Of a stretch of DNA of 35,117 bases, positions 7,079-34,062 are shown piece by piece; within the stretch, counting starts at the first letter, position 1; every line of letters starts with the position of its first letter. Source of the stretch: Candidatus Shapirobacteria bacterium (lineage in GTDB: Bacteria; Patescibacteriota; Microgenomatia; UBA12405); assembly GCA_026395315.1 (NCBI GenBank), contig JAPLYY010000024.1, positions 1 through 35,117 of the forward strand, written 5' to 3'. Made by a program: the position numbers and the translations under genes. The notes under the pieces were generated by a model. It was not told where the DNA came from and searched no databases. It saw only the letters and a program-made list of their open reading frames with translations.

Positions 7079-7082
7079 CTTT
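6937..7082 (+). repeat. DGR1 variable repeat (VR1)
   Basis: It gives a 146-nt ungapped alignment to the reverse complement of 8521-8666. There are 27 differences, and 25 of them fall at positions that are A in the TR. The segment TGAGTTTGTCTTCCGTCTTCG near the 3' end is identical in both copies. Confidence 0.92.
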
Positions 7083-7114
7083 GACCCTTTGTTCCTTAGT
7101 TCCTCCTTTACTAC

Positions 7115-8212
7115 TTAGGGATTTTGATTCTTTGACTCTTTGTTCTCCTTGTCGCGAAGCGACTCAGTCATAATTTTTTGTGAGAGCTTGTATGTGTTCC
7201 CATGACGCAATAAACCCAAATATGAATTTAATGTTTCCAATGAGTTGTTTTGTCGCAGTCTTTTCAACATGTGGTGTTTGGTGGCCGTACGGAGAATTCG
7301 ATGATGACCAAAATGTACCCAACCTAAAAAATCAATTCCTGAGGCAAGCGTTTTGATAAAGACTTTTTTAGGATGAAGGGAAAGTTTTAAATTTGTTTCT
7401 AAATATTCGGAAAGTTTTGGAATAAGTTCTTCTAAGTATATTTTACTTTGACTAAAGATGAGAAAGTCGTCAGCATAGCGCAAATAATATTTCACTTTCA
7501 ATTTTCTTTTCACAAATTGATCGAATTGATTCATATAAATATTAACGAGAAGCTGACTGGTTAAATTGCCAAGAGGAAGCCCAACACTAAGTTTTCCAAC
7601 AGTTTCAAAACTATCAATGACTTGTTCCAGAAGCCACATGATATCAGGATCTTTAATGGATTCTTTTAAGATATTTTTGAGAACAGCGTGGTCAACACTG
7701 GCAAAAAATTTTCTAATATCACCCTTTAAAATCCAAGTGGTTTTCGTGTTATTTTGAGATGCCTTTCGTCCAAAACTTCTGGCTCTATCCATGGCCTTAT
7801 ATGTGCCCTTACCCATTCTGCAAGAATAGGAATCAAAGATAAATTGACGATCAAAATAAGGATAGAGACTACGGTGAAGAGCATGATGAACGATTCTATC
7901 GCGGAGACTTGCCTTGTGAATATCTCTTGGTTTGGGATCGCTTATTTTAAAAGCAAAATAGCCACCATGTCGATATGTTTTGGTAATCAAGTCTTCATAA
8001 AGAGAAATCAAATTATCGGAAAAATGTAAGATAAATGTAGCAACATCTTTTCTGTTCTTTTTTCCTCGTAAGAATTCCTGCCATGAGGTTAGTAAATTTT
8101 CAAAAGAAACGATATCATTATACCTATGGTTAAAACGCTTTCTTTTAGCAGCGCTTCGATTTTGATTAAAATCAAAGATGGATATTTGCTCTGGACGAGT
8201 ATTGTTTCTCAT
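7115..8212 (-). CDS. DGR1 reverse transcriptase
   Basis: 365-aa ORF. It carries LPLGNLTSQLLVNIYMNQFD (the DGR-type IGxxxSQ motif), the YADD box (LRYADDFLIF), LSLHPKK and GIDFLGW. It is adjacent to Avd and TR1. Confidence 0.9.
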   Translation of the reverse strand: MRNNTRPEQISIFDFNQNRSAAKRKRFNHRYNDIVSFENLLTSWQEFLRGKKNRKDVATFILHFSDNLISLYEDLITKTYRHGGYFAFKISDPKPRDIHKASLRDRIVHHALHRSLYPYFDRQFIFDSYSCRMGKGTYKAMDRARSFGRKASQNNTKTTWILKGDIRKFFASVDHAVLKNILKESIKDPDIMWLLEQVIDSFETVGKLSVGLPLGNLTSQLLVNIYMNQFDQFVKRKLKVKYYLRYADDFLIFSQSKIYLEELIPKLSEYLETNLKLSLHPKKVFIKTLASGIDFLGWVHFGHHRILRTATKHHMLKRLRQNNSLETLNSYLGLLRHGNTYKLSQKIMTESLRDKENKESKNQNP

Positions 8213-8509
8213 ATTCCTAAGTGTGCCCGATATACCATTGGTACACGAATTGAAAATAAATTTTTAGATCTTTTGGAACTTTCCTATCACACCTACTTTA
8301 CAGAGAAAGATAAAAAGATAGAAAAAATTACTGAATGTATCTCAATTCTAGATACCTTAAAATTTTTTATCTATATTTCTTGGGAGGCAAAATTTATTTC
8401 TCCTAAAAGTTATGAGTCAATGACGGTTATACTTGATACTGTTGGAAAAATGTTTGGTGGCTGGAAGAAAAGTTTGGAAATTTTAGAGAAGAAAAAAGAC
8501 ACCTCTTAG
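8126..8509 (+). CDS. avd: Avd-like four-helix-bundle accessory protein of DGR1 (start uncertain; TTG at 8162 gives 115 aa)
   Basis: The core DGYLLWTSIVSHIPKCARYTIGTRIENKFLDLLEL...MFGGWKKSL aligns by eye with Avd2 (YDFILWLYPIINRLPKNHCLIIGKTLEE...MLTGWIG). Its 5' end overlaps the RT1 5' end on the opposite strand. Confidence 0.7.
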   Translation: MVKTLSFSSASILIKIKDGYLLWTSIVSHIPKCARYTIGTRIENKFLDLLELSYHTYFTEKDKKIEKITECISILDTLKFFIYISWEAKFISPKSYESMTVILDTVGKMFGGWKKSLEILEKKKDTS

Positions 8510-8520
8510 GCGTACAAAAG

Positions 8521-8666
8521 AAAGATACTTTCGAAGACGGAAGACAAACTCATTGTCGAGATTCCAGTGATTGTCCGGATTGGCCCAATTGCTATTCAAC
8601 CACGGGGTGTCGTCATTGCGTTCGACCTTGAACACGTTCGGATTGCCGTCAGAGTCAGTTTTTTGT
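8521..8666 (-). repeat. DGR1 template repeat (TR1)
   Basis: Read on the minus strand it has nine AAY codons, and every one of them differs in VR1 (VR1 has G,D,G,R,V,Y,Y,A,R). It is on the same strand as RT1. Confidence 0.92.
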
Positions 8667-9104: not shown

Positions 9105-9914
9105 ATGATACAATCATTCCAGATTCTGCACCAACACAATACTATGGACAACAATACTCTTACAGACAAACAACTGACTATTCTCAAACTACTATACCGA
9201 TTTCGATTTTTAACTAGCACTCACATTCAACACTTACTCAATGACAAAACATCACGACTAACAAATTATCATCTTAAAATTTTAACGACTCAAAATTATA
9301 TAAACAAACACTACACACGAACACTCGGATCAGGCAACCAGCCAGCTATTTATTTTCTCTCGTCAGGAAGTATCAAAGCATTACAAAATATTGAGGGTAT
9401 AGAATCAAAAACACTCCAGCGTATTTATCGGGAAAAAATCAGATCACCACAATTTATCTCTCATGCCATATTTATTGCCCAATATTATCTTTATCTACAA
9501 TCTGAATCTGCAAAATCAAAACATACTCTACACTTCTTCACCAAAACAGACTTATTAGCTCACAAATATATTATCCACCCCTTGCCCGACGCCTATTTTG
9601 CCCGAGTTGATGAAAAGAAAGAAACCAAACGCTATTTTGTCGAAGTTATCGACGAGGGCGCGCCACGGTTTGCCTTAAGAAAAAGAATTGAGCAATATAC
9701 CGACTATATCGACAACGGCACATTTGAAAAGGTAACTAAACACCCATTCCCGACAATCCTCTTAATCTGTCCAACCGTTGGAGTACAAATATACTTAAAA
9801 AAATATCTTGCCAAAATGTACGAAGAATCTTCCCTTGATCAAATAGAAATCTTCATTACCACCAAAGAAGGGGCATTCTTGGGCCAGTGGGAAAAAGTAA
9901 ACCCAGAGGAATAG
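9105..9914 (+). CDS. replication-relaxation family protein (putative relaxase-like function)
   Basis: 269-aa ORF. The N-terminal LTDKQLTILKLLYRFRFLTSTHIQHLL is the typical wHTH opening of Replic_Relax proteins. The conjugation-gene neighbourhood supports the call. Confidence 0.6.
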   Translation: MIQSFQILHQHNTMDNNTLTDKQLTILKLLYRFRFLTSTHIQHLLNDKTSRLTNYHLKILTTQNYINKHYTRTLGSGNQPAIYFLSSGSIKALQNIEGIESKTLQRIYREKIRSPQFISHAIFIAQYYLYLQSESAKSKHTLHFFTKTDLLAHKYIIHPLPDAYFARVDEKKETKRYFVEVIDEGAPRFALRKRIEQYTDYIDNGTFEKVTKHPFPTILLICPTVGVQIYLKKYLAKMYEESSLDQIEIFITTKEGAFLGQWEKVNPEE

Positions 9915-10802: not shown

Positions 10803-12040
10803 TGTATTTGGAAGCATGCCCATGCTTCCAATACTTGGATGTCTTCAAAGCGGGGTGAGGTTTGCAAGGGCAAGCGAAGCACAGTTTATTGGAGTGAAAC
10901 GGAAACCCTTGCCAAACGAGGGGCAAGACCCCTAAATATCAAATTATTTAAAAAAGTGATTAGGACGCGATACATTTCGGACTCTTATACAAAAATATAT
11001 GAGTCACGAGACAGACAGAACAAGACACATTCTTCCAAAGCTGGGCAAGGGTAATTACAATACCCTGATGAAGCTGATTTCAAATAGTCTTACTTTTAGT
11101 GTTTCTGATTGTGCTAAGTTCAGGCTTCATGTATTGGATCATTATTTTAAACATGGCATCAAGTCCACCTGTCATGCTTTTAATCTTCCAAGGAGCACTG
11201 TGTATGGTTGGAGGAAGTCTTTTTTATCCTCAGACAAAAAGATAGTTTCTCTGGTTCCCAAATCCACCAGGCCAATTAGAACAAGGCAGATGGTGCTTGA
11301 TCTAGAACTTCTGGAGTTTATTAAATCAATGAGAGAAGAATATGGAAATCTGTCCAAATATAAAATCAAGCCATTCTTAGATGAATACTCCAAAAAGAAC
11401 AATCTACCTTTATATGGAACAACCAAAATTGGAGTAATTATTAAAAGAAAACACTTTTTCTTTGAAACTAGATCAAAAAGGAGATTTAAAAGAAAACCCT
11501 TTATAGTGAGGCTAAAAAGATCTCCCAAAGAAACTATCCCGGGATATATTGAAATGGACTCTGTAATCATTCAGGTGATTAACAGAAAATATTTCTTTTT
11601 AACAGCAATTGATATTGTTACTAAATTTGCTTGGGTAAAAATGACCACAAACCATTCCTCAAGGCAAGCCAAGCTTGCCTTAATTGAATTCAAAGAAAAT
11701 TACAAATACTGTTTAAGAACAGTCCAAACTGACAATGGATCAGAATTCTTAAGTGAGTTTGATGAGTATTTGCAGGAGATCAAAATCAAACATGAGTTTA
11801 TCTATCTTAAAAGTCCAAAAATAAATGGTGTGGTTGAGAGATTCAACAGAACCATACAAGAGGAATTTATTCAAAGAAATGATAGTTACATTGATGACAA
11901 GTTTAAATTTAATCAAAAACTACAAAATTATCTAATCTGGTACAATACAAAAAGACCACATTACTCACTGGGACAAATTTCCCCCTATGAGTACATGCAA
12001 AGATTTACCTTAAAAGTCTGAAATGTACCCGACCTATACA
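10803..12040 (+). mobile_element. IS481-like insertion sequence (boundaries approximate)
   Basis: It contains a single rve-type transposase ORF. The putative ends are TGTAT... (10803) and ...TATACA (12040), which are only weakly complementary. No flanking direct repeat was seen. The right end abuts the truncated VirB4-like reading frame. Confidence 0.5.
10999..12021 (+). CDS. DDE transposase with integrase core (rve) domain, IS481-like
   Basis: 340 aa. An N-terminal HTH-like region is followed by IEMDSV, VQTDNGSEF, INGVVERFNRTIQEEF and YNTKRPHYSLGQISP. Confidence 0.85.
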   Translation: MSHETDRTRHILPKLGKGNYNTLMKLISNSLTFSVSDCAKFRLHVLDHYFKHGIKSTCHAFNLPRSTVYGWRKSFLSSDKKIVSLVPKSTRPIRTRQMVLDLELLEFIKSMREEYGNLSKYKIKPFLDEYSKKNNLPLYGTTKIGVIIKRKHFFFETRSKRRFKRKPFIVRLKRSPKETIPGYIEMDSVIIQVINRKYFFLTAIDIVTKFAWVKMTTNHSSRQAKLALIEFKENYKYCLRTVQTDNGSEFLSEFDEYLQEIKIKHEFIYLKSPKINGVVERFNRTIQEEFIQRNDSYIDDKFKFNQKLQNYLIWYNTKRPHYSLGQISPYEYMQRFTLKV

Positions 12041-12042
12041 GT

Positions 12043-13218
12043 GAAAACAAACTGGCACAAAAAAGAAACCTAGATAGCTCGAGTGCAGCACTCACTTTCC
12101 CGTTTGTGTCATCGGAATTGGTACAGGAATCTGGAATTCTTTACGGCATCAACAAATCAAATAACTCGCTAGTCATTATTGATCGCTACAGTCTAAACAA
12201 CGCCAACTCCATTATTTTTGCCCAATCGGGAAGCGGGAAAAGCTATACGGCTAAAGTCGAAATTTTAAGACACTTAATGCAGGGTACCAAGGTTATCATT
12301 ATCGATCCGGAGCGGGAGTACAAACAATTGGCGGCGAGTGTTAACGGTACCTATATCAAACTTTCGAGTAGTTCCAAAGAAAAAATTAATCCGTTTGAGT
12401 ATTCCCAACATTCAGTCACTGATGAAAACAATTTGACTGAACATATTCAAGATCTCACTGAGCTTATTTCCCTGATGGTTGGTTCACTAACCTCAGAGGA
12501 GCGGGCATCGGTCGACCGGGCTTTGCTTCTAACTTATAAAAAGATCGGTCTGACTACCCGTAAGAATGCGAGATCGAAAAAAGCAGAGTATCCACTCCTG
12601 AAAGATTTTTACAAAAATCTCAAAGTCATGAAACATAAAGATCTCTGTGACAGGCTAGAACGGTTTGTCAAAGGTTCACTCTCGACTGTTTTTGATTCTC
12701 AAACCAATATTAAACTCGATAACCGTTTAATTGTTTTTGATATTAAGGATCTCAACGAATCCATCCGATCAATCATGATGATGGTCGTGGCCAATTTTGT
12801 AAACAACGAAGTCAAACAAAATCCACAAAAGAGAATGTTGGTGATAGATGAGGGCTGGCTCCTTTTGCAAGAACCGGAAAGCGCTAGGTTTATTTCAGGG
12901 TTGGTAAGACGTGCAAGAAAATATTATTTAGGAGTCACTATTATTACTCAGCAAGCCAATGACTTTTTGAATCAGGAATACGGAAAAGCTATCGCCAGCC
13001 AATCATCCTTAAGAATTCTGATGCGCCAAGATACGACAACAATTAAAAAAGTAGCCAGTGAATTTCATTTATCCGCCTACGAACAGCACTATTTATTAAC
13101 TTGCGACCGAGGGGAAGCTCTCATTATCGCCGATCAAAATCATGTGGCAGTAAAAGTGGTAGCCTCAGATGAAGAACATCCACTTCTGACCACCGACCCC
13201 AGAGAAGTCTACATCTAG
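12043..13218 (+). pseudogene. VirB4/TrbE-like T4SS ATPase, C-terminal fragment (N-terminal half missing)
   Basis: Walker A is AQSGSGKSY, Walker B is MLVIDEGW, followed by RRARKYYLGVTIITQQ. The frame stays open upstream of the GTG at 12106 (..SENKLAQKRNLDSSSAALTFPF..) as far as the IS end. No N-terminal VirB4 portion is found to the left of the IS. Confidence 0.7.
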
Positions 13219-13220
13219 CT

Positions 13221-13847
13221 ATGAACCCCAAGGTAATACTCACTCTTTGGTCATTTCGGAAAGAGTTGAAGTTCGTCCTAATAGCTTTTATTGCTGTGTT
13301 GATGCTGCCTGTAGTTGCCGTCATTCTTCTTACTCAGGTCGGTATCAATGTTATTTCCAACAAACTGGTTGATCAAAATCCAACGAACCAAGCCATCCAG
13401 ATTAAAGATCCTGTGACAGGTAAAGTTGTCAAAGAAATCAACCCGACGATTGTTTGGCCAACCAAAGGAGTGATTACCCTCGAATTTGGAGAAATGAGTA
13501 TTTATCAACCGTTTCATACAGGGATTGATATTGCCGGAAAATTGGATGATCCGGTCAATCCAGCCATGGATGGTACCGTTATTTATGCCGGAGAAATCTT
13601 TTGGGGATTTGGAAAACACATCATTATTGATAATGGCAATAACATTCAAACTATCTATGCTCACTTAGACAAGATCTATGTCTACAAGGGTCAGAAGGTC
13701 ACTACAGACAGTGTAATTGGCGGCCAGGGTGAAACCGGCTGGGCAACAGGTGTTCATCTTCACTTTCAAGTAAACGTTTACGGGATACCAGTCAATCCGA
13801 GGGTGTTTTTAGGCGACGGATCTCCTCCTCTGACAGCCTTGAATTAG
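13221..13847 (+). CDS. membrane-anchored M23 family metallopeptidase (T4SS-associated cell-wall hydrolase candidate)
   Basis: An N-terminal TM helix is present. Motifs are HTGIDIAG (HxxxD) and GWATGVHLHFQV (HxH). It starts 3 nt after the VirB4-like stop. Confidence 0.85.
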   Translation: MNPKVILTLWSFRKELKFVLIAFIAVLMLPVVAVILLTQVGINVISNKLVDQNPTNQAIQIKDPVTGKVVKEINPTIVWPTKGVITLEFGEMSIYQPFHTGIDIAGKLDDPVNPAMDGTVIYAGEIFWGFGKHIIIDNGNNIQTIYAHLDKIYVYKGQKVTTDSVIGGQGETGWATGVHLHFQVNVYGIPVNPRVFLGDGSPPLTALN

Positions 13848-13910: not shown

Positions 13911-14693
13911 ATGGATACCAAAAACACGATTCTATCTCAAAAAGATTTGGCTTTACTTGAGGCTATAGTCCTTAAGTACGGTCGTGTGGTCACGGTGGCT
14001 CAAATACAGGCTGTTATTGGGGAATTTGGGTCAAACGGCGCAATCCGAAAACGGGTAGCCCAAATGAGCAAAGCTGGCTGGCTTATTCGTCTCAAAAAGG
14101 GGTTATATCTCGTAGTTACGGATATCAGTTCACTGGGCTTTTCCGACACCTCAGAGCTAGTGATTGCTCAGGCACTCCAGAATGACTCGTACGTCTCGTT
14201 TGAGAGTGCTTTACAGCACTACAGCATGTTTGATCAACTTCTAGCCAGGATAGACTCAATTTCAGTTAAAGTGACCAAAACATACAACGTGTTGCAAACT
14301 ACCTATTCATTTTTGAAAATAAAGGATGATTTGTATTTTGGATATACGGAAGAAACACTTGGTAACCAAAAGGTAAAAATTGCTGAAAAAGAAAAGGCTA
14401 TTCTCGATATGCTATATTTTCGATCAACTGATTACGTTATAACGCTTACTCTGGAAAAACTAAGAGAATATAAAGACCAATTCGATTTTAAAAAACTTAA
14501 AAATTATGCGGCCAAATATTCACTCTCAATGATTCGGAAAGTAGGCTTCTTACTTGACCAAATTGGAATTGATACCTCAGATCTATTATCCCTTAGTGAA
14601 TCCAGTAAAAAAAGTCACAATAAGTTAACCAAAACCAGTGATCTTTATAGTACAAAATGGCACCTTTACTATGATTCCCACCTTATTGGATAA
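13911..14693 (+). CDS. abiEi: AbiEi-family antitoxin / transcriptional regulator
   Basis: The N-terminal wHTH pattern is LLEAIVLKYGRVVTVAQIQ...KAGWLIRLKKGLYLVV. It is paired with and overlaps the AbiEii gene. Confidence 0.75.
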   Translation: MDTKNTILSQKDLALLEAIVLKYGRVVTVAQIQAVIGEFGSNGAIRKRVAQMSKAGWLIRLKKGLYLVVTDISSLGFSDTSELVIAQALQNDSYVSFESALQHYSMFDQLLARIDSISVKVTKTYNVLQTTYSFLKIKDDLYFGYTEETLGNQKVKIAEKEKAILDMLYFRSTDYVITLTLEKLREYKDQFDFKKLKNYAAKYSLSMIRKVGFLLDQIGIDTSDLLSLSESSKKSHNKLTKTSDLYSTKWHLYYDSHLIG

Positions 14694-15441
14694 ACAAACA
14701 TTACAGCTTATTAACCGAAAGTATCTGAAATATTCTCCGGTGGCTGCCGAAAAAGATTATTTTCTCGCTCTTGCGCTAGAAGTACTTGAAGAATCTTCAC
14801 TTTATAACAAGTTGGTTTTTAAAGGCGGTACGGCGATTCATCATTGCTATCTTTATCTGGGTAGGTTTTCAGAGGATCTCGATTTTACTTCACTGGACAA
14901 AAATCTCAAAAGTGAAGATGTTACAGGAATATTTACCCCAATTCACTTTTTTGAGGTGAAGAAAGTTTATACCTCAAAAGCAACTATCAAAATCGAACGG
15001 CTAAAATATTCGGGTGTCCTTGATCAACCAAACTCACTAAAATTTGAAATTGATTTTATCCAAAATGTGGTGCTACCACCAAAACAAATGAAATACACCA
15101 ATGTTTGGGGAGTAGATGTAATGGTTAATGTTATGGATATCCGGGAAATTTTTGCAGAAAAGTTACGAGCAATGAGTGATCGTGCCCGGTACAGAGACTT
15201 CTACGATTTTTATTTGATCTCAGAAAAATATAATTTGGATATGGCGGAAACAATAGATCTTGTAAAACAAAAGGAAATTAGAAAACCAATTTCAAAAGAA
15301 TCTATTTTACATAATTGGAAGGTGGTATCGGAACAAAAGAAGGAAGAAATTAATTTGATTTACTACAGACAAGACGTGTTTGACAACGAACGGGGAATTG
15401 AAAAATTGCTTAAAGATTTCAACTTTACGGTGATTGAATAA
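14671..15441 (+). CDS. abiEii: AbiEii/AbiGii-family nucleotidyltransferase toxin
   Basis: Motifs are AAEKDYFLALAL, VFKGGTAIHHCY and RFSEDLDFT. The start MIPTLLDKQ overlaps the abiEi 3' end by 23 nt. Confidence 0.85.
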   Translation: MIPTLLDKQTLQLINRKYLKYSPVAAEKDYFLALALEVLEESSLYNKLVFKGGTAIHHCYLYLGRFSEDLDFTSLDKNLKSEDVTGIFTPIHFFEVKKVYTSKATIKIERLKYSGVLDQPNSLKFEIDFIQNVVLPPKQMKYTNVWGVDVMVNVMDIREIFAEKLRAMSDRARYRDFYDFYLISEKYNLDMAETIDLVKQKEIRKPISKESILHNWKVVSEQKKEEINLIYYRQDVFDNERGIEKLLKDFNFTVIE

Positions 15442-15679: not shown

Positions 15680-16024
15680 TTGGAAAAATTTGTCCTGCAC
15701 CAAAAAACCTATGATTTTATTCTTTGGCTTTACCCTATTATTAACCGTTTACCCAAAAATCATTGCCTGATTATTGGAAAAACACTTGAAGAATTAGCCG
15801 TATCCCTTCTTTTAGTGTTGATGAAAGCCAACAAATCACGGGGAACGGATAGAGAACGGTTTCAGGAAGAAGCATCAAATACTTTGGACTATCTCTATAT
15901 CATGATTCGGTTGACCAAGGATATACGTCTGATGAGCGTAAAGCAATATACAGCCAGCGCCGAAAAACTCAATGAAATAGGCCGAATGCTGACCGGCTGG
16001 ATCGGAACCGCAAAAAGTGTATGA
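15680..16024 (+). CDS. avd: Avd-like four-helix-bundle accessory protein of DGR2
   Basis: 114 aa with a TTG start preceded by GGAG. It carries LPKNHCLIIGKTLEE...NEIGRMLTGWIG and lies immediately upstream of TR2 and RT2. Confidence 0.8.
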   Translation: MEKFVLHQKTYDFILWLYPIINRLPKNHCLIIGKTLEELAVSLLLVLMKANKSRGTDRERFQEEASNTLDYLYIMIRLTKDIRLMSVKQYTASAEKLNEIGRMLTGWIGTAKSV

Positions 16025-16060
16025 TAAGAAAAGTGGGAAAGATAAGTCATAACGCAACGT

Positions 16061-16177
16061 GCTTTCTCCGCGGTGGCAATTGGAATAATGGCGACAACTC
16101 CGGGGCATTCGCAGCGAAATTGAATAACGCGCCGGGTGATTCGAACAACAATATTGGCTTTCGTTGCGCCAGCGATC
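16061..16177 (+). repeat. DGR2 template repeat (TR2), FGE/C-type-lectin type
   Basis: It lies between avd2 and RT2 and translates as FLRGGNWNNGDNSGAFAAKLNNAPGDSNNNIGFRCASD, with nine AAY codons. It is homologous to 18953-19069. Confidence 0.75.
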
Positions 16178-16373
16178 GTATTGTTTTGCTAGGTACCCGC
16201 AAAACAAACGCCAGAACGAGTGGTATATGTCTACGGACACATATCCAGGGTTTTATGATCACAGCTGTCTTTTCCTTTCCGAAATTTTTTTGGAAAAACA
16301 TAATGCCTGTATTTTCATTATTCTCGGCAAGCGGATAATGAAGTAAATGGGTGATAAACAGATTGGGTACGAG

Positions 16374-16406
16374 AGACAAACCCTGCCCTCAAAGCGGGGT
16401 TTGTCT
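16374..16406 (+). promoter_or_regulatory. 10-bp-stem hairpin ending 1 nt before the likely RT2 start codon
   Basis: AGACAAACCC (16374-16383) pairs with GGGTTTGTCT (16397-16406), and the ATG is at 16407. It lies in the TR-to-RT spacer. Confidence 0.45.
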
Positions 16407-17492
16407 ATGTTTGAACAAATTTATGATTTGGAGAGTTTGTGTGCCGCCTTCAAACGGGCACAGTTGGATAATCGCTATAAGCGAAAAATCTGTGCCTTTT
16501 GTTTTTCCCTTGAAGAGAATTTATTGCGTTTGAACTGGGAATTGCAACGAGGTTCATATGTGCCAAGCCCTTATACCTATTTTATGCTCCACGACCCAAA
16601 AATCCGAGCCATTGCGGCACCGGATTTTCGTGACCGGGTGGTACAACACGCCCTGGTCGACTGTATCCAGCCGATTTTAGAAAAACAATTCATTTATGAC
16701 TCCTTCGCTTGTAGAGAAGAGAAAGGAACACATTTTGCCGCCCGAAGAGTAAAACGATTTCTTATGGCAGCAAGATCTTTATACGGAAGTCAAACACCAA
16801 TTTATGTGCTTCAGTGTGATATCAGGAAATTTTTTCAGAGCGTTTCTTGGGATATTCTTCTTGGTATTGTTCAAAATACCATCACCTGTCCGAAAACATT
16901 TGCTCTGATTAGAACAATTGTGACTACTCATTACAACGCGTTACCGCCGACAAAGACTGACTCTTGCCAAATGTCTCTCTTTTCGAAAAGTTCAGTCGGA
17001 ATAGATGCGAGTATTTCCGTGGCAACGCGGACAGGATTACCAATAGGAAACCTCACCAGTCAACTGCTTGCTAATGTTTACCTCAATGAACTGGATCACT
17101 TTATCAAAGACAGATTAAGATTACGTTGGTACGCCCGGTATATGGACGACTTCTTGGTAATACATCCCGATCGCGTTTACTTAAAGCAACTCTGTGATCA
17201 AATAAACATATTTCTTAAAGACACATTACATCTTTCCTTACATCCGAAAAAATTAACTATCAAAAACGTCTCAGACGGAGTTCCCTTTGTCGGATATCGG
17301 ATTTTTTATGACCATGTACTGATTCGTGGAAATACGCTTCGTCGAATTGAAAAAAACTACCGCTCAAAAACAAAACAACTGAAAAACGGGCGTTTCACTG
17401 AAGAAAAACTGGATCAAACTAAGGCGTCTATTACCGGTCATCTTAAGCACGCTAACAGTTACGGATTAACTAAGAAGATATTTTCAAAATAA
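16407..17492 (+). CDS. DGR2 reverse transcriptase
   Basis: I chose the start MFEQIYDLESL; the track ORF begins 20 codons earlier, at 16347. Motifs are LPIGNLTSQLLANVYLNELD, YMDDFLVIH, LSLHPKK and VPFVGYRIF. Confidence 0.9.
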   Translation: MFEQIYDLESLCAAFKRAQLDNRYKRKICAFCFSLEENLLRLNWELQRGSYVPSPYTYFMLHDPKIRAIAAPDFRDRVVQHALVDCIQPILEKQFIYDSFACREEKGTHFAARRVKRFLMAARSLYGSQTPIYVLQCDIRKFFQSVSWDILLGIVQNTITCPKTFALIRTIVTTHYNALPPTKTDSCQMSLFSKSSVGIDASISVATRTGLPIGNLTSQLLANVYLNELDHFIKDRLRLRWYARYMDDFLVIHPDRVYLKQLCDQINIFLKDTLHLSLHPKKLTIKNVSDGVPFVGYRIFYDHVLIRGNTLRRIEKNYRSKTKQLKNGRFTEEKLDQTKASITGHLKHANSYGLTKKIFSK

Positions 17493-17594
17493 ATGTATAC
17501 GGATATCTTGTGTTGTGCGTCTTCATACACTATTATGATATATAGATGAACTGGGTATCGGCCTAGTTTGTTTGCATAGAAAAAAGGATTGATT

Positions 17595-17717
17595 ATGATT
17601 ATGGTAACAGAGCCTAAAATATCCACTAAGATAGCAATCTTTAAAGGTAAGAAGGTTCGAAAAGTTATCTTCCAAAATCGAATAGATTCAAATAGTTTTT
17701 CTCTTACCCCAAATTAA
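17595..17717 (+). CDS. small ORF (40 aa), possible Bro-N/antirepressor-like N-terminal fragment
   Basis: AAGGA lies 6 nt upstream of the ATG. It translates as MIMVTEPKISTKIAIFKGKKVRKVIFQNRIDSNSFSLTPN. Its stop is 1 nt before the ATG at 17719. The family call rests only on the IAIFKGKKVRKV pattern. Confidence 0.25.
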   Translation: MIMVTEPKISTKIAIFKGKKVRKVIFQNRIDSNSFSLTPN

Positions 17718-17718
17718 C

Positions 17719-20700
17719 ATGAAACCATTATTAAAAAACCTAAAAGCATACCTGTTTGTCCCACGCTGGCACTTGTCACGGTTTCAGTTTAATCTCTTTT
17801 CGATTTTATTTTTGTCTATTGGCCTTATTGGCGGAACGTATTTGACGCTTCTTAAAGTTTTTCCTAACGTTTTTGCCATAAACGACACAACTCAAATCTG
17901 GACGTTTGACGCCGGACATGCAACTGATTACACCACCGCTTCTACCATCATGACGGTTGATGCCAATGGCGCCCATCCGACAGGCGGCGTAGATGGAGCC
18001 AATGAAATCACTAACTCAAGCTTTACGGCAAATAATAACTCCTGGACACTGACGGCCCTGCAAAGCGCTACTAATACTCCGGCTGGCTGGGTAGTTGTTC
18101 CGGGAAACAGTAATTTTGTAGCGACCGGCTCGGCGTTTTTGGCCATGAAATATGAAGCAAAATGCGCCAATTCCGCAACCCCCACAGTTGGACTGACCAG
18201 TCCGGCGGATACAAGCTACGAGGTTTACCGTGATGACGGAACGGCAACGGCGGCCAATAACTGTACAGCGGCCAACGGCAGGGTGGTAACTTCGCTTGCC
18301 TCGGGATATCCAATTACTTATCTTTACCAAACAGAGGCGGCCACTCGCTGCGCAACAGTAACTGTGGGTGGCGCCGCTGCCCACTTAATCACCAATGACG
18401 AATGGATGACAATTGCCAATGACGCGGAACAACAGGCTGGTAACTGGACAGGGGCGGCGGTGGGTTCCGGCTATTTATTTGCCGGCCACAATGATAACAC
18501 TCCGGCTAAGGCCAGGGTTGCCTCAACCACCGATACCGGAAATTACCGCTGCGCCTATACCGATGCCAGTCCGGGCACGGAAGCTCCGAGTGCCTGCCCA
18601 ACCAAGACTGCCCTTGGTGAATCAGGGCTTGTAGGAAACCAGGTTCGTGTTTTGACATTATCAAACGGCCAACCTATTTGGGATATTGTCTGAAACGTCT
18701 GGGAATGGACAAATAATACGGTTCCGGCTAATCTGCAACCAACATCTTGGAACGGAACGACAGATGCGACAACCGGAGATTGGTCCGATTATGCAAGCGG
18801 ATCATTGCCGAGATATCTCCATAGCTACGTAAGCGGTTCACCGGTAACAAAACTAAAATCAGAACCAACAAGTTCTTCTTACACCCACAATGCTACATAC
18901 GGTATCGGAAGAATATGGAATTATTCTCTGTCAAGCAGTTCAACGGCTTACGGCTTTCTCCGCGGTGGCGATTGGAATAATATTGGCAACGCCGGAGCGT
19001 TCACATTGTATCTGAACATTACGCCTGTCTACCGGAACTACAACCTTGGCTTTCGCTGCGCCAGTGATCCCGTAGCCCTCTCCCAATCTCAGTCCTCTAG
19101 CATAGGCCGCGGAGCGGCCGGCGGCGAAGTTTTGGTGGTCCCTGCGGTAGCCGACGCCAAATTTACCCAGAGCATAAATCTGGGTGAAGTTGCCAGTTAT
19201 GATTTTTCCGCTTATGTCTACGACACCACAAGTAGTGGCGGGGCGGTGAGTGAAACGGTGGCCCAGTTGTATTTCAATGGCGCGGTGGTTAACCCAACCA
19301 CTTATACAGCGGTAACAGGAGAAACCGGGTGGTATAAGCTGACCGGAACCGTTACTAGCACCAACAGTGCTGTTGAATACGGATTATTTGTCAAAGCCGG
19401 AAAAACCGTTCGTGTCGATGACTTTACTTTATCCAAATCCGGAACTGCTTACAGTGTTTTCACCAAAAACGGTTATTTCAAAAACGACGTTTCCTCATGG
19501 GATTCGTTTTCAGCCAGTGTTACGAATAACGGCACTAACGGCTCGGTTGTCTACCAACTCTGCACTGATGACTTGGGGGATGCTGCCGCCGTTGGACAAG
19601 GAACTGCCTGCCAAGCCCAAAACAAATGGAAATGGTGGAACGGGAGCGCTTGGGTGTATGCCACCAACAGTACCACAGAGGTAAACACTGCCGCCCAATT
19701 AACACAAGCAGTGATGCAACACGCCTCGTTGGGAACATCTTCTAAAAAAATCAGTGTTAAGGCAATTTTGAGCTTCGGCGGAGTAGATTACCCCAAAATC
19801 GCGACCATTACCCTGGGACTGACCACAGACACGACGCCCCCAACCAATGCCACAGGACTGTACATGAATAACGAAAACGGCGTTACTTGTACCGATACTG
19901 ATAACTGCTGGACAAAATTGACCGGACCAACATTCTCCTGGACTGCCGGAAGCGACACTCAGTCACCCACTGTCCGATACTGTGTCTATTTGGGTACAGA
20001 CGCGGCTGGGGAGCCGGCAACGGACAAAGGAAAGCTGGGAACTTCTCCGGTAACCGTTCCTGTCGGCTGGACCTGCCAATTTTTGATTTCTGCCACCTCT
20101 TTGGATCTCTCAACTGCCGGATATTTGGCAACTGCACTGTCAAATGCTGACGTATTTACCACTACTGCAAATACTTACTATTTGAAAATAAAGGCTGTTG
20201 ATAACGGCGGAAATACGTCAACAACCAGTCTTTCTATGAAATTTAGGTATGACGGAACCGCACCAACTAATGTAACCTCGATTAATCCGGCGTCGGGAAA
20301 TTTTTCTAATGTCAGCGATATGAATTTTTCCTGGCCGGTTTCTCCCGCGATAGCAGCTTCCATTGATAACGAAAGCCAGGTATTAGGCTGGCAGTATCAG
20401 ATAAACCCAAGTGTGGATACCAACGGCGTTACAACGAGCGCCTGGAAAGGGACAACCCACTCAACAAACTTTAATCTTGACTATATTCCGGCAACAGCTT
20501 CTGCATATACATTTGTAACTTCCCGCGATAGCGATGGAAGCTCGGTGGGAGTGGGAAAGGTTAGTTCGGGCACTAACCAGATTTATTTCAGAACGGTTGA
20601 TAATGTGGGTAATTTTTCCTCAAACGCCACCATCAGAACCGGCTCTATTTCTTTCGGTGGAATTGCGCCGTCATTTATTCAAACAGACTCAGTGACTATT

Positions 20701-22560
20701 ACTCCCGATTCGGCAACAACAAACTCTTACGCCCTTTCCTGGCCCGCGGCAACAGCGACCACAAATAAAACGGTGACTCACTACTATTACATGATTAATG
20801 CGTCCCCGCCGACAACCTTAGCTACTTTGCAAGGAAACGCCTCGACTTATATCGATAACGGCACAGCCACAACCGTGGCCGTTCGCGCCCTGCCAAATGT
20901 TAATAAAGGCACAAACACGGTGCGGGTGGTGGCAATAGATAGCGCCACCGTTCCCAATTATTCATCCAGTAATGTTATCAGCGGAACTTTTGTACTGGAT
21001 TCGGATATCCCGGACAATGTCGGTAACCTGGTTGCCTCAGATTCCTCAATTAAATCTCAATCACAATGGAATGTTACCTTAACCTGGACGGCACCGGTCT
21101 ATCAGGGAGCGGGAAATCTTACCTATATTGTCAAACGCTCAACCGATAATGTTACCTTTACCCAAGTTGGAACCAGTACCGGCCTTTCCTATGTAGATAA
21201 CGCCCCTGCCTCTGCCTTGTACTACTACGAGGTTATAACCAAAGACAACACCGCTGACGGCTATTCAAGTGGCACCAACGCGGTTTCCATTACCCCAACG
21301 GGTAAATGGACAACCGCCCCAACCCTTGACTCAGGCCCCGATGAAGGATCAATCACCACTATAAAAGCCACAATTTCGTGGTAGACTTCAAGTACCAGCG
21401 ATTCCAAAGTACAATATGGAACAACGAGTGGCAGTTACAGCGCCGACGAAGTATCCAATTCATCTCAGGTAAGTAGCCACACAGTGAATCTAACCAACCT
21501 TAAAGCCGGAACGACATACTATTACAAGGTGAAATGGACGGATGAAGACGGCAACACCGGAACCTCTGACGAGAACAGTTTTACCACCGCTTCGGCACCC
21601 ACCATTAAGGATGTGACTGCCGGAAGTATCGGTTTATCCTCGACAATTATTCAATATACCGCTAAAGACGCCTCAAAGGTGAAAATTTACTACGGTAAAA
21701 CCACATCTTTTGGCGGCCTTAAAGAAGTTTCTACCTCTACATCGGAAACAACCTATACCACTCAGCTATCTGACTTAGATGACGGCACTAAATATTACTA
21801 CAAAATTAACTCTTTTGATTCAGAAGGAGCCGAATACGAGGGAACAATTCTTGATTTTACGACTCTCCCGAGGCCAAAAATCTCCGGCGTACGCCTAGAA
21901 ACGGTGGCTAATACCGCCCAGACAACTATCCGTGTGACATGGACAACTAATACGGAAGTTTCCTCAATCGTGACTTATTACCCGGAGGGTAATTCTGCCG
22001 CTGTCCGCGATGAAGTCAAGGTGACCTTGGAAAAGGGCGCGCATTCACTCATGATCCGGGGTTTATCTACCCAAACCAGATATTTGTTGGTTGTCCGAGG
22101 TCGAGACAAGCTAGGCAACGAAGCTATTTCTGATACCCAACGCTTTACAACTGCCACAGATACCCGTCCGCCGACGATCTTAAACCTTAAAGTTATTGGC
22201 GGCACAATTTCGCCAGTTGGATTTGCCGCAGGCGACGTTAAAGCTCAGCTGATTATTACCTGGGATACAGATGAACCGGCTACCGGACAGGTTGAATTCG
22301 GACAAGGTTCTGGCACCACTTATTCCCAAAAATCGCAGTTTGACGGCAACATGGCCAGTAACCACACCGTTATTTTATCCGGCCTAATACCAAGCCAGGT
22401 ATACCATCTACATGCGCTGTCTCAGGACGCTTCGGGCAATCCCGCAGTCAGCATTGATTTGGTCACTATCGCGCCCAAAGCAACCCGCTCGGCACTTGAT
22501 TTGGTAGTCAAAAATTTATCGGAGGCATTTGGGTTTATCGGTTCCATTCAACTGAAATAA
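17719..22560 (+). pseudogene. giant surface protein (signal anchor, FGE/C-type-lectin domain with VR-like segment, Ig/Fn3-like repeats) in one frame with two in-frame stops
   Basis: Track ORFs 17719-18693, 18805-21384 and 21484-22560 share one frame and are separated only by TGA (18691-18693) and TAG (21382-21384). The TGA replaces the Gly of the conserved motif, reading WDIV*NVWEWT. Four tandem Fn3-like units of the pattern (..TW.T....S.V.YG......YYYK) occur in the last ~400 codons. Confidence 0.7.
18953..19069 (+). repeat. VR-like scaffold homologous to TR2 (not adenine-specific)
   Basis: It translates as FLRGGDWNNIGNAGAFTLYLNITPVYRNYNLGFRCASD. It is the same length as TR2 with no gaps, and the first 17 nt are identical. 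Of 32 mismatches, only 8 fall at TR adenines. Confidence 0.7.
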
Positions 22561-22562
22561 CT

Positions 22563-23324
22563 ATGATGGAAACAACTAAAACCACGATCATCGAAGTAAA
22601 AAACCTTAATAAAACCTTTGAGGTTAAGTCAACACAAATACCGGTGTTGAAAGATATTAACGTGGAGATTAAAAAGGGCGAGTTTATCATTATTACCGGC
22701 CCGTCCGGCTGTGGCAAATCCACCCTCTTACATATCCTGTTGGGACTTGAACCGCCAAGTTCGGGCTCTGTTGTCTTTTTGGGTAATAATCTTTACGGTG
22801 GCATGACCGAGGATGAACGCACAGAAGTGCGAAAAACCGAAGTCGGCATGGTGTATCAACAACCCAACTGGATTAAGGCTTTAACCGTTTTGGAAAACGT
22901 GATGTTTGCCCTCCGGATTAACGGAGAAACGGATGAAGATGCCCGCAAAAAAGCGATTGAGGTTCTGACTATGGTGGGTATGGATAAATGGCAAGATTAC
23001 ATTCCAACCGAGCTATCAAGCGGGCAACAGCAGAAAGTGGCTTTAGGACGGGCTGTTGTCACCAACCCCCAGATTATTATTGCCGATGAACCGACGGGGA
23101 ACCTCGACTTTAAATCCGGTCAGGAACTGATGGAACTTTTAAAAAAACTGAATAATGAAAACCGAACGATTATCATGGTGACACACGACCTGGAATATCT
23201 GACCTTTGCCACCCGGTCGTTTATTATGTTTGACGGCAAAATTGTCGGATCGGCACATGAGCATGAACTGGCGGGAAAGTTGGGCGGTTTCAAAAAATTA
23301 ATGGCTTCAGTCACCAAACAATGA
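22563..23324 (+). CDS. ABC transporter ATP-binding protein (MacB/LolD/FtsE-like)
   Basis: Walker A is GPSGCGKST, the signature is LSSGQQQKVALGRA, and Walker B is IIIADEPTGNLD. Confidence 0.9.
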   Translation: MMETTKTTIIEVKNLNKTFEVKSTQIPVLKDINVEIKKGEFIIITGPSGCGKSTLLHILLGLEPPSSGSVVFLGNNLYGGMTEDERTEVRKTEVGMVYQQPNWIKALTVLENVMFALRINGETDEDARKKAIEVLTMVGMDKWQDYIPTELSSGQQQKVALGRAVVTNPQIIIADEPTGNLDFKSGQELMELLKKLNNENRTIIMVTHDLEYLTFATRSFIMFDGKIVGSAHEHELAGKLGGFKKLMASVTKQ

Positions 23325-26197: not shown

Positions 26198-26306
26198 GGT
26201 TTACCTCCATATTATCAATAAATACGATTTTTCCGTCTACCTCTGTGATTCCTAATTCCCCGAGCTTATAATATGTCTTGATTACACTCTCGAAAAGAGG
26301 TTCCAC
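26190..26306 (-). CDS. small conserved ORF (38 aa, GTG start) upstream of the HKD nuclease; paralogue at 31015-31191
   Basis: MEPLFESVIKTYYKLGELGITEVDGKIVFIDNMEVNHE is ~53% identical over 38 aa to the translation of 31015-31191, and many of the nucleotide differences are synonymous-type. There is no obvious RBS, and the frame is open upstream into the repeat. Confidence 0.3.
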   Translation of the reverse strand: MEPLFESVIKTYYKLGELGITEVDGKIVFIDNMEVNHE

Positions 26307-27820
26307 CGGTGGTACAATTGGCTCACCAAAAGGGAAATCGAGTCGGAAGTGGGGGCAGCGCTGGCTGCGCCCCCCTTCGCAGACAGCGCTGCAAAGGCAT
26401 AATTCAAATCCGCCGAGAGCCGCCGATTCATTAAAAAGAAGTTCGAGCCGACTTTTTTTACCATGATTGACAAATCATGGCAATTATTTTTTGCGCGCGC
26501 GATTTTTTGCGCCTGTAAGGCGCAATTTACGAATTCTCTCATAGGTTCGAGCCAAACAGTTCCGTTTTTCTTAATTTGGGATTTTCTTTCCTCTAACTTT
26601 AGTTTTTCGTCAAACAATTCATTCTTCTTCTGTTTGTAAATTCCCGGTTCGATAACCTGATCGAGATAACCGTCAAGAAGCCTATTTAGTTTTACTTCGG
26701 ATTCTTGGATTTGTCCGTCAAGCTGTTTTTCTTCTACTTCGGCAACTAATTTATCTTTTTCTTCGGCTTGGGTGATCCACTTATCAAAATACGGTTCCCA
26801 GCCTTCGTGCAAGCCGCAATCATGAACAATTTTTCTTACTTGTTCTTCTGTATCAGATTCAGAAATATATTTTTGATTACATGGTTTTAGTTTTTTAGTG
26901 CAACGATAGTAAATAAAAGTTTGTCCAGTTCCATTTTTATATTTCTTGACGTGTTGTTCTGCGGTGATTGCGGCGCCGCATTCGCCGCAGGTCGCCAGAC
27001 CTGCAAAGGCGAAATTGTGGCCTTTTTGTCTTGGTCTTTCGATTCTCTCAACTTGTTTTTGGACTTCGTCAAACAGCTTTTTGCTGATAAAAGTTTTGTG
27101 AGAACCTTGATAATATTCGTCAGCATATTTGAGAATGCCTAAGTAGAATTTATTTGAAAGCATATTTTTTACTTGGCCAACTTTTACGAGTTTTTCTCCC
27201 TCCCGCTTAATTCCAAACTTAAACATAAATTGAGAAATGGCCGTAAATGAAGAATTGCCTTCAGCAAAAAGCTGAAATGATTTTTTGACGATTCGTGATT
27301 TTTCTTCGTCAACATCTATTCCCCTCGTTTTGGGATTATTGGAATATCCGTAAGGTGCTTTACTTGGCCAAACTCCGTTACGGAGTTTTTGCCTATTACC
27401 TCGTTTGACATTTTCGCTTAGATTATCAACATAATACTTGCTTTGGCCAAAGGCGATTGAAAGCATAAATTTGCCTTGCGGGGTGCTTTCAAACCAAAAT
27501 GAGGGGAATTTTAAATCAAGGAGTTTGCCGGTATCCAAAAGATAAATTATTTTTCCTCCGTCAATACTGTTTCTAGCCAAACGATCGGGATGCCATGAAA
27601 GAATGGCGTTAGCCATTCCTTTCTCGATTTTCCTTAAGACTTCCGCAAATTGCTCTCGCCCAGGAACCTTAGCGGTTTTCGCTTCGGTGATAAATTCGGT
27701 GATAGTTAGATTTTCTCGTTTGGCAAACTCCTTGAGTTCGGCAATTTGGGCTTCAATAGACAAAACTTGTTTATCCTTTTCATCTGTGGATTTTCGACAA
27801 TAGGCAATATATTTGATCAT
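26282..27820 (-). CDS. large serine recombinase
   Basis: 512 aa. Motifs are AYCRKSTDEKDKQVLSIEAQ, HPDRLARN, APYGY and the zinc ribbon CGECGAAI...YYRCTK. The last ~45 codons run through the 103-bp repeat and beyond, so the natural C-terminus is uncertain. Confidence 0.9.
   Translation of the reverse strand: MIKYIAYCRKSTDEKDKQVLSIEAQIAELKEFAKRENLTITEFITEAKTAKVPGREQFAEVLRKIEKGMANAILSWHPDRLARNSIDGGKIIYLLDTGKLLDLKFPSFWFESTPQGKFMLSIAFGQSKYYVDNLSENVKRGNRQKLRNGVWPSKAPYGYSNNPKTRGIDVDEEKSRIVKKSFQLFAEGNSSFTAISQFMFKFGIKREGEKLVKVGQVKNMLSNKFYLGILKYADEYYQGSHKTFISKKLFDEVQKQVERIERPRQKGHNFAFAGLATCGECGAAITAEQHVKKYKNGTGQTFIYYRCTKKLKPCNQKYISESDTEEQVRKIVHDCGLHEGWEPYFDKWITQAEEKDKLVAEVEEKQLDGQIQESEVKLNRLLDGYLDQVIEPGIYKQKKNELFDEKLKLEERKSQIKKNGTVWLEPMREFVNCALQAQKIARAKNNCHDLSIMVKKVGSNFFLMNRRLSADLNYAFAALSAKGGAASAAPTSDSISLLVSQLYHRWNLFSRV
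26323..26425. repeat. inverted repeat IR1, left copy (103 bp)
   Basis: It is the exact reverse complement of 27868-27970, checked base by base. It is GC-rich with an internal hairpin (GAAGTGGGGGCAGC..GCTGCGCCCCCCTTC). Confidence 0.9.
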
Positions 27821-32323: not shown

Positions 32324-32881
32324 TTACTTTCTTGATAAATATCCACCTGTTTCCGTACTAATCGAAATTTCTTCTCCGACTTTAATAAACAATGGCACCA
32401 ATACCTTGGCTCCGGTATCTAAAACCGCATTTTTCATCGCTGATGTGGCCGTATCGCCCTTAACCGAATTTTCCGCTTCTACCACTGTGCAAATTATCGC
32501 CTTGGGCAAAGTTACTCCCACCGGTTTTTCATCATAAAATTTTATCCGGTAAAGCAAACCCGCTTTAATATAAATCTTATCATCACCAATAACCTCCGAT
32601 GGTACTGCGTATTGTTCAAAAGTTCTCGGTTCAATAAACACATAAGCTGATCCGTCAAAATAAGAATATTCCGCTTCCTGGGTTTCAACCAAAACTTCCT
32701 CAATTTTTTCTCCCGATTTATAGGTAAATTCAACTACTCTACCAGTATACAATGATTTCAACTTAGTTTTATAAAAAGCACTGCCTTTCCCCGGGCTGAC
32801 AAAAGTTATATCCACGACCATATATGGCTCTTCGTGAAAAATTATATACATCCCTCGTTTTAGCTGTGCGGTTGATATCAT
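32324..32881 (-). CDS. efp: elongation factor P
   Basis: I chose the start MISTAQLKRG. It carries the VSPGKGSAFYKTKLKSL loop motif, is ~185 aa long, and has a C-terminal OB-fold pattern. Confidence 0.85.
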   Translation of the reverse strand: MISTAQLKRGMYIIFHEEPYMVVDITFVSPGKGSAFYKTKLKSLYTGRVVEFTYKSGEKIEEVLVETQEAEYSYFDGSAYVFIEPRTFEQYAVPSEVIGDDKIYIKAGLLYRIKFYDEKPVGVTLPKAIICTVVEAENSVKGDTATSAMKNAVLDTGAKVLVPLFIKVGEEISISTETGGYLSRK

Positions 32882-32892
32882 TCCCATAGGCC

Positions 32893-33189
32893 CTATTCTA
32901 TCACTTGTTCCCAATCCCTTCTACCCATAAAAGTATAATTACCCGCATTATACGCCGCAATTTTATCCCAATTAAATACCACTTGCCTCACCAACGGAGT
33001 GTTTGGAGCTAACCCGCCTAAACTTTCAAGCTGATTCAATAATTTTATTGTATGTTGCTGATTAAGATTCATTCTTGTCCCTTTTTTCTCCACATAACCC
33101 AAAATTAATCTATGACGAATTCCCTCAACCTGTTTTAGTCTTTCAGTTTGATATCTTTTCTCTGCTTCTGGAGTCCGTTGATTAACCAT
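32893..33189 (-). CDS. hypothetical protein (98 aa)
   Basis: This is an ORF only. It lies just upstream of efp on the same strand. Confidence 0.45.
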   Translation of the reverse strand: MVNQRTPEAEKRYQTERLKQVEGIRHRLILGYVEKKGTRMNLNQQHTIKLLNQLESLGGLAPNTPLVRQVVFNWDKIAAYNAGNYTFMGRRDWEQVIE

Positions 33190-33422
33190 TATATTTTAAA
33201 CTTTTATCGTTTCTATTGTAACTTACCGCTTTTATTTTTTCAATAGAGTAAAAATTTTTGAAATTGGTTCTTTATTGGTTCTTTTTGGTATTTAGTCCAA
33301 AAAAAATCCCAGAGTATGCTTTTTAGAGGAGCCACCCCGGGATCTAAGTTAGTAATATATCAAAATATATAAGCCAAGTCAACATATCTCACCAGTGTGT
33401 ACCCACCTAGCGCCAGGCAAGA

Positions 33423-34028: not shown

Positions 34029-34062
34029 TTTGTCTCTATTTTCATGATATCATAAGGCCACT

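Follow-up and report, generated by a model that had tools for sequence, protein, structure and literature searches.

In the diversity-generating retroelement (DGR) of the Bordetella phage BPP-1, a variable repeat (VR) is rewritten adenine-specifically from a template repeat (TR) by mutagenic retrohoming (PMC3240598). DGRs with remote targets have been described for Treponema denticola and for 45 of 372 surveyed DGRs (Wu et al. 2018, PMC5758913); avd, TR and reverse transcriptase (RT) act there in trans on a VR away from the cassette, and such a VR matches a known TR by A-to-N differences only and is counted only if "not part of another DGR". The same source describes TR/VR differences other than A-to-N, which are frequent in the candidate phyla radiation (CPR), reach a maximum of 11 per target and are ascribed to low fidelity or later mutation. 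Related DGR cassettes and fragments, produced by duplication, share one small genome in the DUSEL4 Nanoarchaeota (Paul et al. 2015, PMC4372165). Here we analyse DGR2, an avd-TR-RT cassette (avd2, TR2, RT2) on contig JAPLYY010000024.1 of a Candidatus Shapirobacteria bacterium, together with the surface-protein gene directly downstream, which carries a VR resembling TR2. The window is this entire contig of 35,117 nucleotides (nt); feature positions are collected in Table 1. TR2 is almost certainly not the template of the neighbouring VR, which is very probably a recently adenine-diversified target of a different, TR3-type template.

The closest described relatives are Patescibacteria DGRs with the order avd-TR-RT-target and VRs of the FGE-sulfatase/C-type-lectin type, such as L031 (Ga0194063_10002473) and L010 (Candidatus Daviesbacteria JACPKL010000012.1); L-numbers denote compared contigs or loci, and coordinates are window positions. 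The window shares with these two the gene order, the 117-nt TR and VR, their end sequences and the VR 3' end CAGTGATCCCGTAG, and with L031 an identical downstream hairpin. It differs from them in the relation between neighbours: the TR and VR that lie side by side there are cognate and have 0-2 mismatches at non-adenines, whereas TR2 and the VR have 22.

A preliminary description had presented TR2 and the VR as colinear over 117 nt without gaps, both encoding FLRGG.WNN...GFRCASD, and this held. The two form a gap-free direct repeat with 87/117 identical positions. Since the next best ungapped match to either repeat in the window, both strands considered, reaches 52/117, the pair is far beyond chance. 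Searching both strands of the window, whether or not mismatches at adenines were tolerated, revealed no second copy of the repeat. The first 17 nt contain no mismatch and the last 22 nt contain two (repeat positions 104 and 113), exactly as described, and the central 78 nt contain 28 rather than about 30. The total is therefore 30 mismatches and not 32; the earlier figure of 8 at TR2 adenines stands, which leaves 22 instead of 24 at non-adenine positions. With A making up 24% of TR2 and attracting 27% of the mismatches, this pair has no adenine bias, unlike a cognate pair, in which mismatches fall almost only on TR adenines.

Relatives define what is normal for the family. A flank-based pattern search returned 41 family loci, 10 in GTDB genomes and 31 in JGI metagenomes; many belong to Patescibacteria (Daviesbacteria, Gottesmanbacteria and others) and share the 117-nt unit, and family RTs are 51-87% identical to RT2. 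Where a TR and a VR lie on one contig in these relatives they are cognate: six canonical pairs have 10-23 mismatches with 0-4 at non-adenine positions (L010, 10 and 0; L031, 15 and 2; L016, 16 and 2; L021, 13 and 2; L022, 15 and 2; L019, 23 and 4). The window pair lies far outside this range. Moreover, foreign TRs match the VR better (L019, 100/117; L036, 97/117; L010, 93/117) than TR2 does. The repeat flanks recur in all 41 of these loci from other genomes and metagenomes, where they encode an invariant scaffold and the homing end. Spared flanks, which the preliminary description had read as an argument against uniform decay, can therefore not discriminate between decay and rewriting. The mismatch at position 113 is the usual directional TR/VR end difference of the family, in which most TRs have C and VRs have T, the TR of Daviesbacteria in L010 being the exception.

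Exact look-ups of RT2 and Avd2 provided 13 contigs from 12 sequencing runs, and all 13 carry TR2 at this locus. L001, L003 and L004 each span TR2 to VR with the same non-matching pair, so the pair is not an assembly artefact. L005 (sample ERR15302191) is identical to the window over 16148-20848 (4.7 kb), the exceptions being positions 17642 and 18691 and a further 19 substitutions, all of these 19 within a 74-nt VR core. At 16 of these 19 sites one allele has A (p = 5e-4 against a null of 0.45), which is the mark of a single template copied independently with mutagenesis at its adenines. Judged from these two alleles, population hypervariation at the locus is confined to the repeat. Contig L052 stops at 18969, the base before the first variable VR site; this observation is consistent with mixed VR alleles coexisting in that sample. 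A four-gamete test on contig haplotypes was dropped, metagenome contigs not being reliably phased.

Compared with TR2, the window and L005 alleles have 22 differences in common, and 18 of these lie at non-adenine sites. Among the 18 fixed sites, the TR of L019 agrees with the VR at 12 and with TR2 at 3, and foreign family TRs in general also agree with the VR more often than with TR2. Fixed differences that are shared by both alleles and match sister TRs indicate that the VR is the product of a sister template lineage, neither of TR2 nor of low-fidelity copying. The two alleles allowed us to reconstruct this template, TR3, as GCTTTCTCCGCGGTGGCAAATGGAATAATATTGACAACGCCGGAGCGTTCACATTGAATCTGAACAATACGCCTGACTACCAGAACTACAACCTTGGCTTTCGCTGCGCCAGTGATC, with about 31 adenines, made up of the 19 variable sites and 12 adenines common to both alleles. 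It departs from TR2 at 27 sites, and 9 of the codon differences between the two templates are synonymous. The earlier proposal that the VR was last written from a TR other than TR2 is thus borne out by the adenine signature in L005 and by the 18 shared non-adenine differences.

We propose that an intact DGR2 sits on a conjugative-type element directly upstream of a large surface-protein gene whose VR would have been rewritten by mutagenic retrohoming from the paralogous template TR3. TR3 would most likely lie elsewhere in the same genome and act in trans, through its own RT or through RT2 and Avd2, and TR2 would presumably serve a VR outside this contig. For continued action of TR3 in trans, from another place in the genome, we put the probability at roughly 0.55. 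What the data show is the mismatch between TR2 and VR, adenine-type hypervariation of the VR, the paralogue-type differences fixed in both alleles, and a gene without the TGA in other samples; we infer that TR3 persists in the cell, that one of these RTs uses it, and that TR2 has another target.

Several results weigh against this proposal. TR3 was not found in the window, the one part of the source genome that was searched. It was likewise missing from the 41 GTDB and JGI family loci, from IMG/VR, from the loci to which RT and target homologues led, from 1.84 billion protein representatives and from 62 collected loci. The search for other TRs matching the VR at non-A positions, as the preliminary description had advised, thus identified none in the contig and its relatives that accounts for all non-adenine bases of the VR. 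The converse search, for a VR written by TR2, found no cognate in the window, in 120 target homologues or in the 62 collected loci, nor in the collections screened for TR3. Of the trans model put forward earlier, the use of a template other than TR2 is upheld; neither TR3 nor a remote VR of TR2 has been located. Only two VR alleles are known in all, and four samples contain the window allele without any change, which means that turnover is not fast. The contigs were assembled from metagenomes at k=31; phasing over long distances cannot be relied on, and the point where a contig ends indicates heterogeneity only indirectly. Finally, VR positions 78, 87 and 93 (19030, 19039 and 19045) are T, T and C in both alleles, and family TRs almost always have A there (AAC codons). 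Either TR3 is atypical, with TAC, TAC and CTT codons, or the two VR alleles are not fully independent copies.

Individual candidates for TR3 were also discarded. A VR-peptide search of the representative library returned many TR-spanning open reading frames (ORFs) of the family, the best of which differs from TR3 at 8 of 38 residues. The RT homologues whose TRs come closest to the VR, P0219 (L049) and P0222 (L050), are from other samples and have other TRs; the closest target homologue, P0002 (L051), carries its own cognate-type TR. An IUPAC pattern allowing the VR base or A at each position matched only poly-A runs in IMG/VR, with at least 111/117 A, and would need a limit on A content to be informative.

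The cassette itself is intact, in agreement with the preliminary description, and belongs to a large Patescibacteria family of DGRs. Avd2 (bAvd) adjoins RT2 (RVT_1), which has IGNLTSQ at residue 233 and YMDD at residue 265, corresponding to the DGR-type motif [ILV]GxxxSQ and the catalytic YxDD. Between avd and RT lies a non-coding, adenine-rich TR with most of its adenines in AAC/AAT codons. The true RT2 start is likely M21 at 16407, giving 361 aa. The exact RT2 protein occurs on 7 further contigs, and 4483 homologues at E<1e-30 are mostly from Patescibacteria; the components are ordinary members of a very large DGR family.

An 84%-identical relative, L048 (JGI Ga0209777_10011448), has avd-TR-RT and the same target gene start. 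Its identity to the window is 85% in avd, 94% in the avd-TR spacer, 97.5% in TR, 91% in the TR-RT spacer, 82% in RT and 75% in the target 5' end, so that no other part of the locus is as well conserved as the non-coding template RNA region. Conservation of TR2 and its spacers above that of the flanking genes is the pattern expected of a functional template; TR2 looks functional and appears to be under purifying selection. There is no abrupt island of 100% identity to L048, and hence no sign of recent import. The TR-RT spacer is likely the structured 3' part of the DGR RNA. It has a hairpin (arms 16181-16189/16199-16207, by inverted repeat search) and the family-conserved motif CGCCAGAACGAG...CTACGGA, which is common to the TR flanks of L036, L050 and L010. 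Across the family, CGCCAGAACGAG stands 30-60 nt 3' of TRs and is followed by a short hairpin and then by CTACGGA or CTAAGGA, in non-coding sequence that has no Rfam match; an Rfam search of the whole window also gave none. This conserved motif with its hairpin is probably a spacer RNA element used by RT and Avd.

At 16066-16074 two alleles of the TR2 5' end coexist in the population. The allele GCTTTC-TCCGCGGTGGC, found in the window, L001-L003, L054, L055 and L057, is exactly the VR 5' end; the allele GCTTTCATCCGCGGCGGC, found in L004, L052 and L053, is that of the relative L048. L056 ends at 16066, exactly at the TR2 5' indel. The identity of the first 17 nt of TR2 and VR is therefore allele-specific. 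Relative to the ancestral L004/L048 allele, the derived allele of the window has a 1-nt deletion and a C>T change. These two changes within 9 nt each bring TR2 closer to the VR and suggest that a short stretch of the TR2 5' end was converted by the VR or by TR3. A tentative extension, which we think rather unlikely, is that two paralogous templates compete for, or hand over, one VR, with the conversion of the TR2 5' end as a retargeting step. The recognition elements of the VR would then be shared across the family, and specificity would rest on end homology alone.

The target protein has an N-terminal transmembrane segment and a putative FGE-sulfatase/C-type-lectin-like domain with the VR at residues 412-450. 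With its stops repaired, its match to PF03781 (E=0.0077, residues 384-448 on the profile C-terminus) falls below the cut-off, and weak PDB matches to FGE/SUMF proteins lie at its GNVWEW motif. Most of the 120 closest homologues are 380-450 aa long, end just after the VR, and in several cases carry PF03781; unlike most of them, the window protein continues after the VR (19070-22560) for about 1160 aa of Ig/Fn3-like repeats. For this family it is unusual that the VR lies within the first third of so large a surface protein.

Two in-frame stops, TGA and TAG, arise only with the reading 17719-22560. Both are present in the window, as first reported. Position 18691, however, is G (GGA, Gly) in L001, L003, L004, L005, L006 and L052, from six samples, so elsewhere the gene is free of the TGA stop and only this assembly carries it. 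Counting the TGA site, the window has five private differences in comparison with 6-12 other contigs, all of them changes to T (14854, 14856, 14858, 15680 and 18691). These change KQ to YL in AbiEii, turn the avd2 start from ATG into TTG, and create the TGA. At 15680 in particular, T in the window stands against A in L001-L004 and L052-L057, so that avd2 starts with ATG in all other contigs. The uniform direction of the five changes suggests systematic sequence or consensus error rather than mutation, possibly at 21382 too. The TAG splits a Fn3/purple-acid-phosphatase-N-like domain, the Pur_ac_phosph_N match starting at profile position 24 of 93 and at the third residue after the stop. Among the contigs only the window covers 21382, and exact look-ups of 21484-22560 and 22563-23324 gave no match. 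Genetic code 25, in which TGA is Gly, was rejected as an explanation: TGA ends 9 of 34 listed long ORFs, some with typical stop/start overlaps.

The target keeps the homing features expected of a live VR, a role assigned here from established work on DGRs. In BPP-1, homing involves a directional difference between the TR and VR 3' ends and a GC hairpin located 3' of the VR. Here, the VR 3' end CAGTGATCCCGTAG is shared with the VRs of L010, L049 and L051, and a GC-rich inverted repeat follows, which we regard as a candidate target-recognition hairpin. The 24 nt around it are nucleotide-identical in L031, whose RT is 73% identical to RT2.

Contigs L004, L006 and L051, from different assemblers, end or become chimeric right after ...CAGTGATCCCGTAG(C), equivalent to window position 19076; in L006 the final 14 nt are similar to the VR flank of Daviesbacteria. 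We do not take the breaks at 16148 and 19076 as evidence of extra genome copies: the 31-mers there are common to the L048 TR 3' end and to the VR 3' ends of L010, L049 and L051, so that coexisting organisms explain them. Conservation of the VR 3' end among coexisting organisms will break metagenome assemblies and systematically truncate such target genes.

Templating in trans by a persisting TR3 has to be weighed against a VR that is orphaned and has not yet decayed, TR3 having been lost or replaced recently, with the two alleles as older standing variation and DGR2 as a mere neighbour. We consider this possible, though unlikely. It would account for a TR3 that is found nowhere in the searched sequences and for the presence of TR2 at the locus in 13/13 population contigs; the identity of the window allele in four samples leaves current turnover unproven, and the polymorphic TR2 5' end, one allele of which equals the VR, could be a remnant or a conversion tract. 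Yet the backgrounds of the two VR alleles differ at 2 sites in 4.7 kb, both with the TR2 3' end, so that diversification appears younger than any cassette change. The adjacency of cassette and target is also old, L048 sharing avd-TR2-RT and the target 5' end at 75-98% without a 100% island. Conservation of TR2 fits selection, as the TRs of L031 and L041 differ at 3/117 positions at similar RT distance, and the break of L052 at the first variable site suggests coexisting alleles in one sample. The present data fit both templating in trans now and a cognate TR recently lost or replaced. Import of VR alleles by homologous recombination, from related strains or from paralogous targets with a TR3-type DGR, is improbable. 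VR ends are nucleotide-conserved across organisms, assemblies break or turn chimeric after ...GATCCCGTAG(C) in L004, L006 and L051, and related VR genes coexist in the samples, all of which speaks for such exchange; but the conserved 5' block is just 17 nt, a short homology that is a poor recombination substrate, and the L005 allele is joined to 2.6 kb of upstream and 1.8 kb of downstream sequence identical to the window. Imported alleles would in any case remain products of a TR3-type template.

The remaining explanations are essentially excluded. A dead pair, in which DGR2 has lost its target and the differences from TR2 are decay in a two-stop pseudogene, was the alternative offered by the preliminary description. 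Although the TGA at 18691, the TAG at 21382 and the 22 non-adenine mismatches suit it, this reading, already very improbable, is weakened by the G at 18691 in six contigs and by the allelic variation of the VR: the TGA is not fixed and belongs to the five private changes to T, allele differences are limited to 74 nt with an adenine signature, 9 of the codon changes relative to TR2 are synonymous, the scaffold is intact, and hairpin and VR 3' end are conserved. Even less credit can be given to the possibility that RT2 copies TR2 with low fidelity on all bases and that the VR is its product. Non-A-to-N substitutions do occur in 23% of the 372 DGRs surveyed and are commoner in CPR (PMC5758913), with a stated maximum of 11 per target as against 22 here. 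The same 18 non-adenine differences appear in alleles that differ at 19 adenine-type sites, a pattern that random misincorporation cannot produce, and many of the 18 match states of sister TR lineages. An assembly chimera between one strain's DGR2 cassette and another's target gene is equally remote. Conserved TR and VR ends do create graph branches in these metagenomes; however, L001, L003 and L004, from different samples, span TR2 to VR with the same sequence, and L052 spans TR2 into the first 17 nt of the VR.

Both DGRs of the window lie on one integrated conjugative-type element (297-27820), whose identified genes are listed in Table 1. The right end of the window is chromosomal, with EF-P and trigger factor at 32324-34824, which in other contigs are followed by ThrRS, IF3, L35, L20 and PheRS. 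The order TraG-M23-avd-TR-RT also occurs in L050, where type IV secretion system pilin genes precede it. Between the M23 peptidase gene and avd2 the window carries an AbiEi/AbiEii toxin-antitoxin pair (13911-15441) that is absent from the equivalent place in L048 and L050. In DGR1, TR1 and VR1 have 23 mismatches, 21 of them at TR adenines; the orientation of its bAvd-like ORF is unusual. BLAST against phages and plasmids gave no match.

Table 1. Positions of DGR2, its neighbouring target gene and other features of the window.
Feature	Position	Strand	Remarks
avd2, accessory variability determinant	15680-16024	+	114 aa; Pfam bAvd, E=9.6e-20
avd-TR spacer	16025-16060	+	non-coding
TR2, template repeat	16061-16177	+	28 adenines, mostly in AAC/AAT codons
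TR-RT spacer	16178-16346	+	
RT2, DGR-type reverse transcriptase	16347-17492	+	RVT_1, E=1.5e-22
Target gene	17719-22560	+	one frame, about 1613 codons
TGA stop	18691-18693	+	replaces conserved Gly of IWDIV[G]NVWEWT, the FGE-type GNVWEW motif
VR, variable repeat	18953-19069	+	24 adenines in window allele
Hypervariable VR core	18970-19043	+	all 19 window/L005 substitutions
GC-rich inverted repeat	19105-19119	+	GGCCGC-GGA-GCGGCC, 36 nt downstream of VR
TAG stop	21382-21384	+	frame reopens at 21385 and runs to 22560
DGR1	4967-8658		second, canonical DGR
VR1	~6944-7081		3' end of PcfJ-like gene (4967-7078)
RT1	7115-8212	-	
bAvd-like ORF	8126-8509		strand opposite to TR1/RT1; between them, overlapping RT1 5' end
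TR1	8521-8658	-	
Serine recombinases	297-1994 and 26282-27820		
Coupling-protein-like ATPase	2287-4929		
Relaxase	9105-9914		
rve integrase	10999-12021		
TraG/VirB4-like ATPase	12106-13218		
M23 peptidase	13221-13847		

The locus is a variant of known DGR behaviour, since there are precedents both for remote targets and for genomes with more than one DGR. With BPP-1 it shares adenine-specific rewriting of a VR from a TR (PMC3240598). The TR/VR 3' end difference and the GC hairpin that follows the VR are further common features; BPP-1, however, diversifies a phage tail fibre and has one TR/VR pair, which is cognate, whereas here a cellular CPR surface protein on a conjugative-type element has a non-cognate neighbour. 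As in the remote-target DGRs of the survey (PMC5758913), a TR would act on a VR away from its cassette, yet the window VR adjoins a different, intact cassette. The noncanonical pairs in that survey also differ from the present one, in which 18 of the 22 non-adenine mismatches are shown by two alleles to be fixed template differences. Like the DUSEL4 Nanoarchaeota with their several DGRs, the window carries two; the available text of that study (PMC4372165) reports no VR beside one cassette that is served by the TR of another.

For annotation, the lesson is that adjacency of a TR and a VR does not establish partnership. In DGR surveys, a TR is assigned the similar repeat that lies closest to it, and mismatches outside adenines are put down to low fidelity or decay; the present locus offers a third case, an intact cassette beside a live VR from a different, paralogous template, and some of the "noncanonical" CPR pairs may be mispaired neighbours. 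Should the competition between templates be real, conversion of short end segments would be a way for DGR cassettes to gain targets, with adjacent non-cognate pairs as the intermediates. If TR3 acts in trans, related DGRs within one small genome would share recognition elements and still keep separate targets, and the determinants of TR-to-VR specificity would become directly testable.

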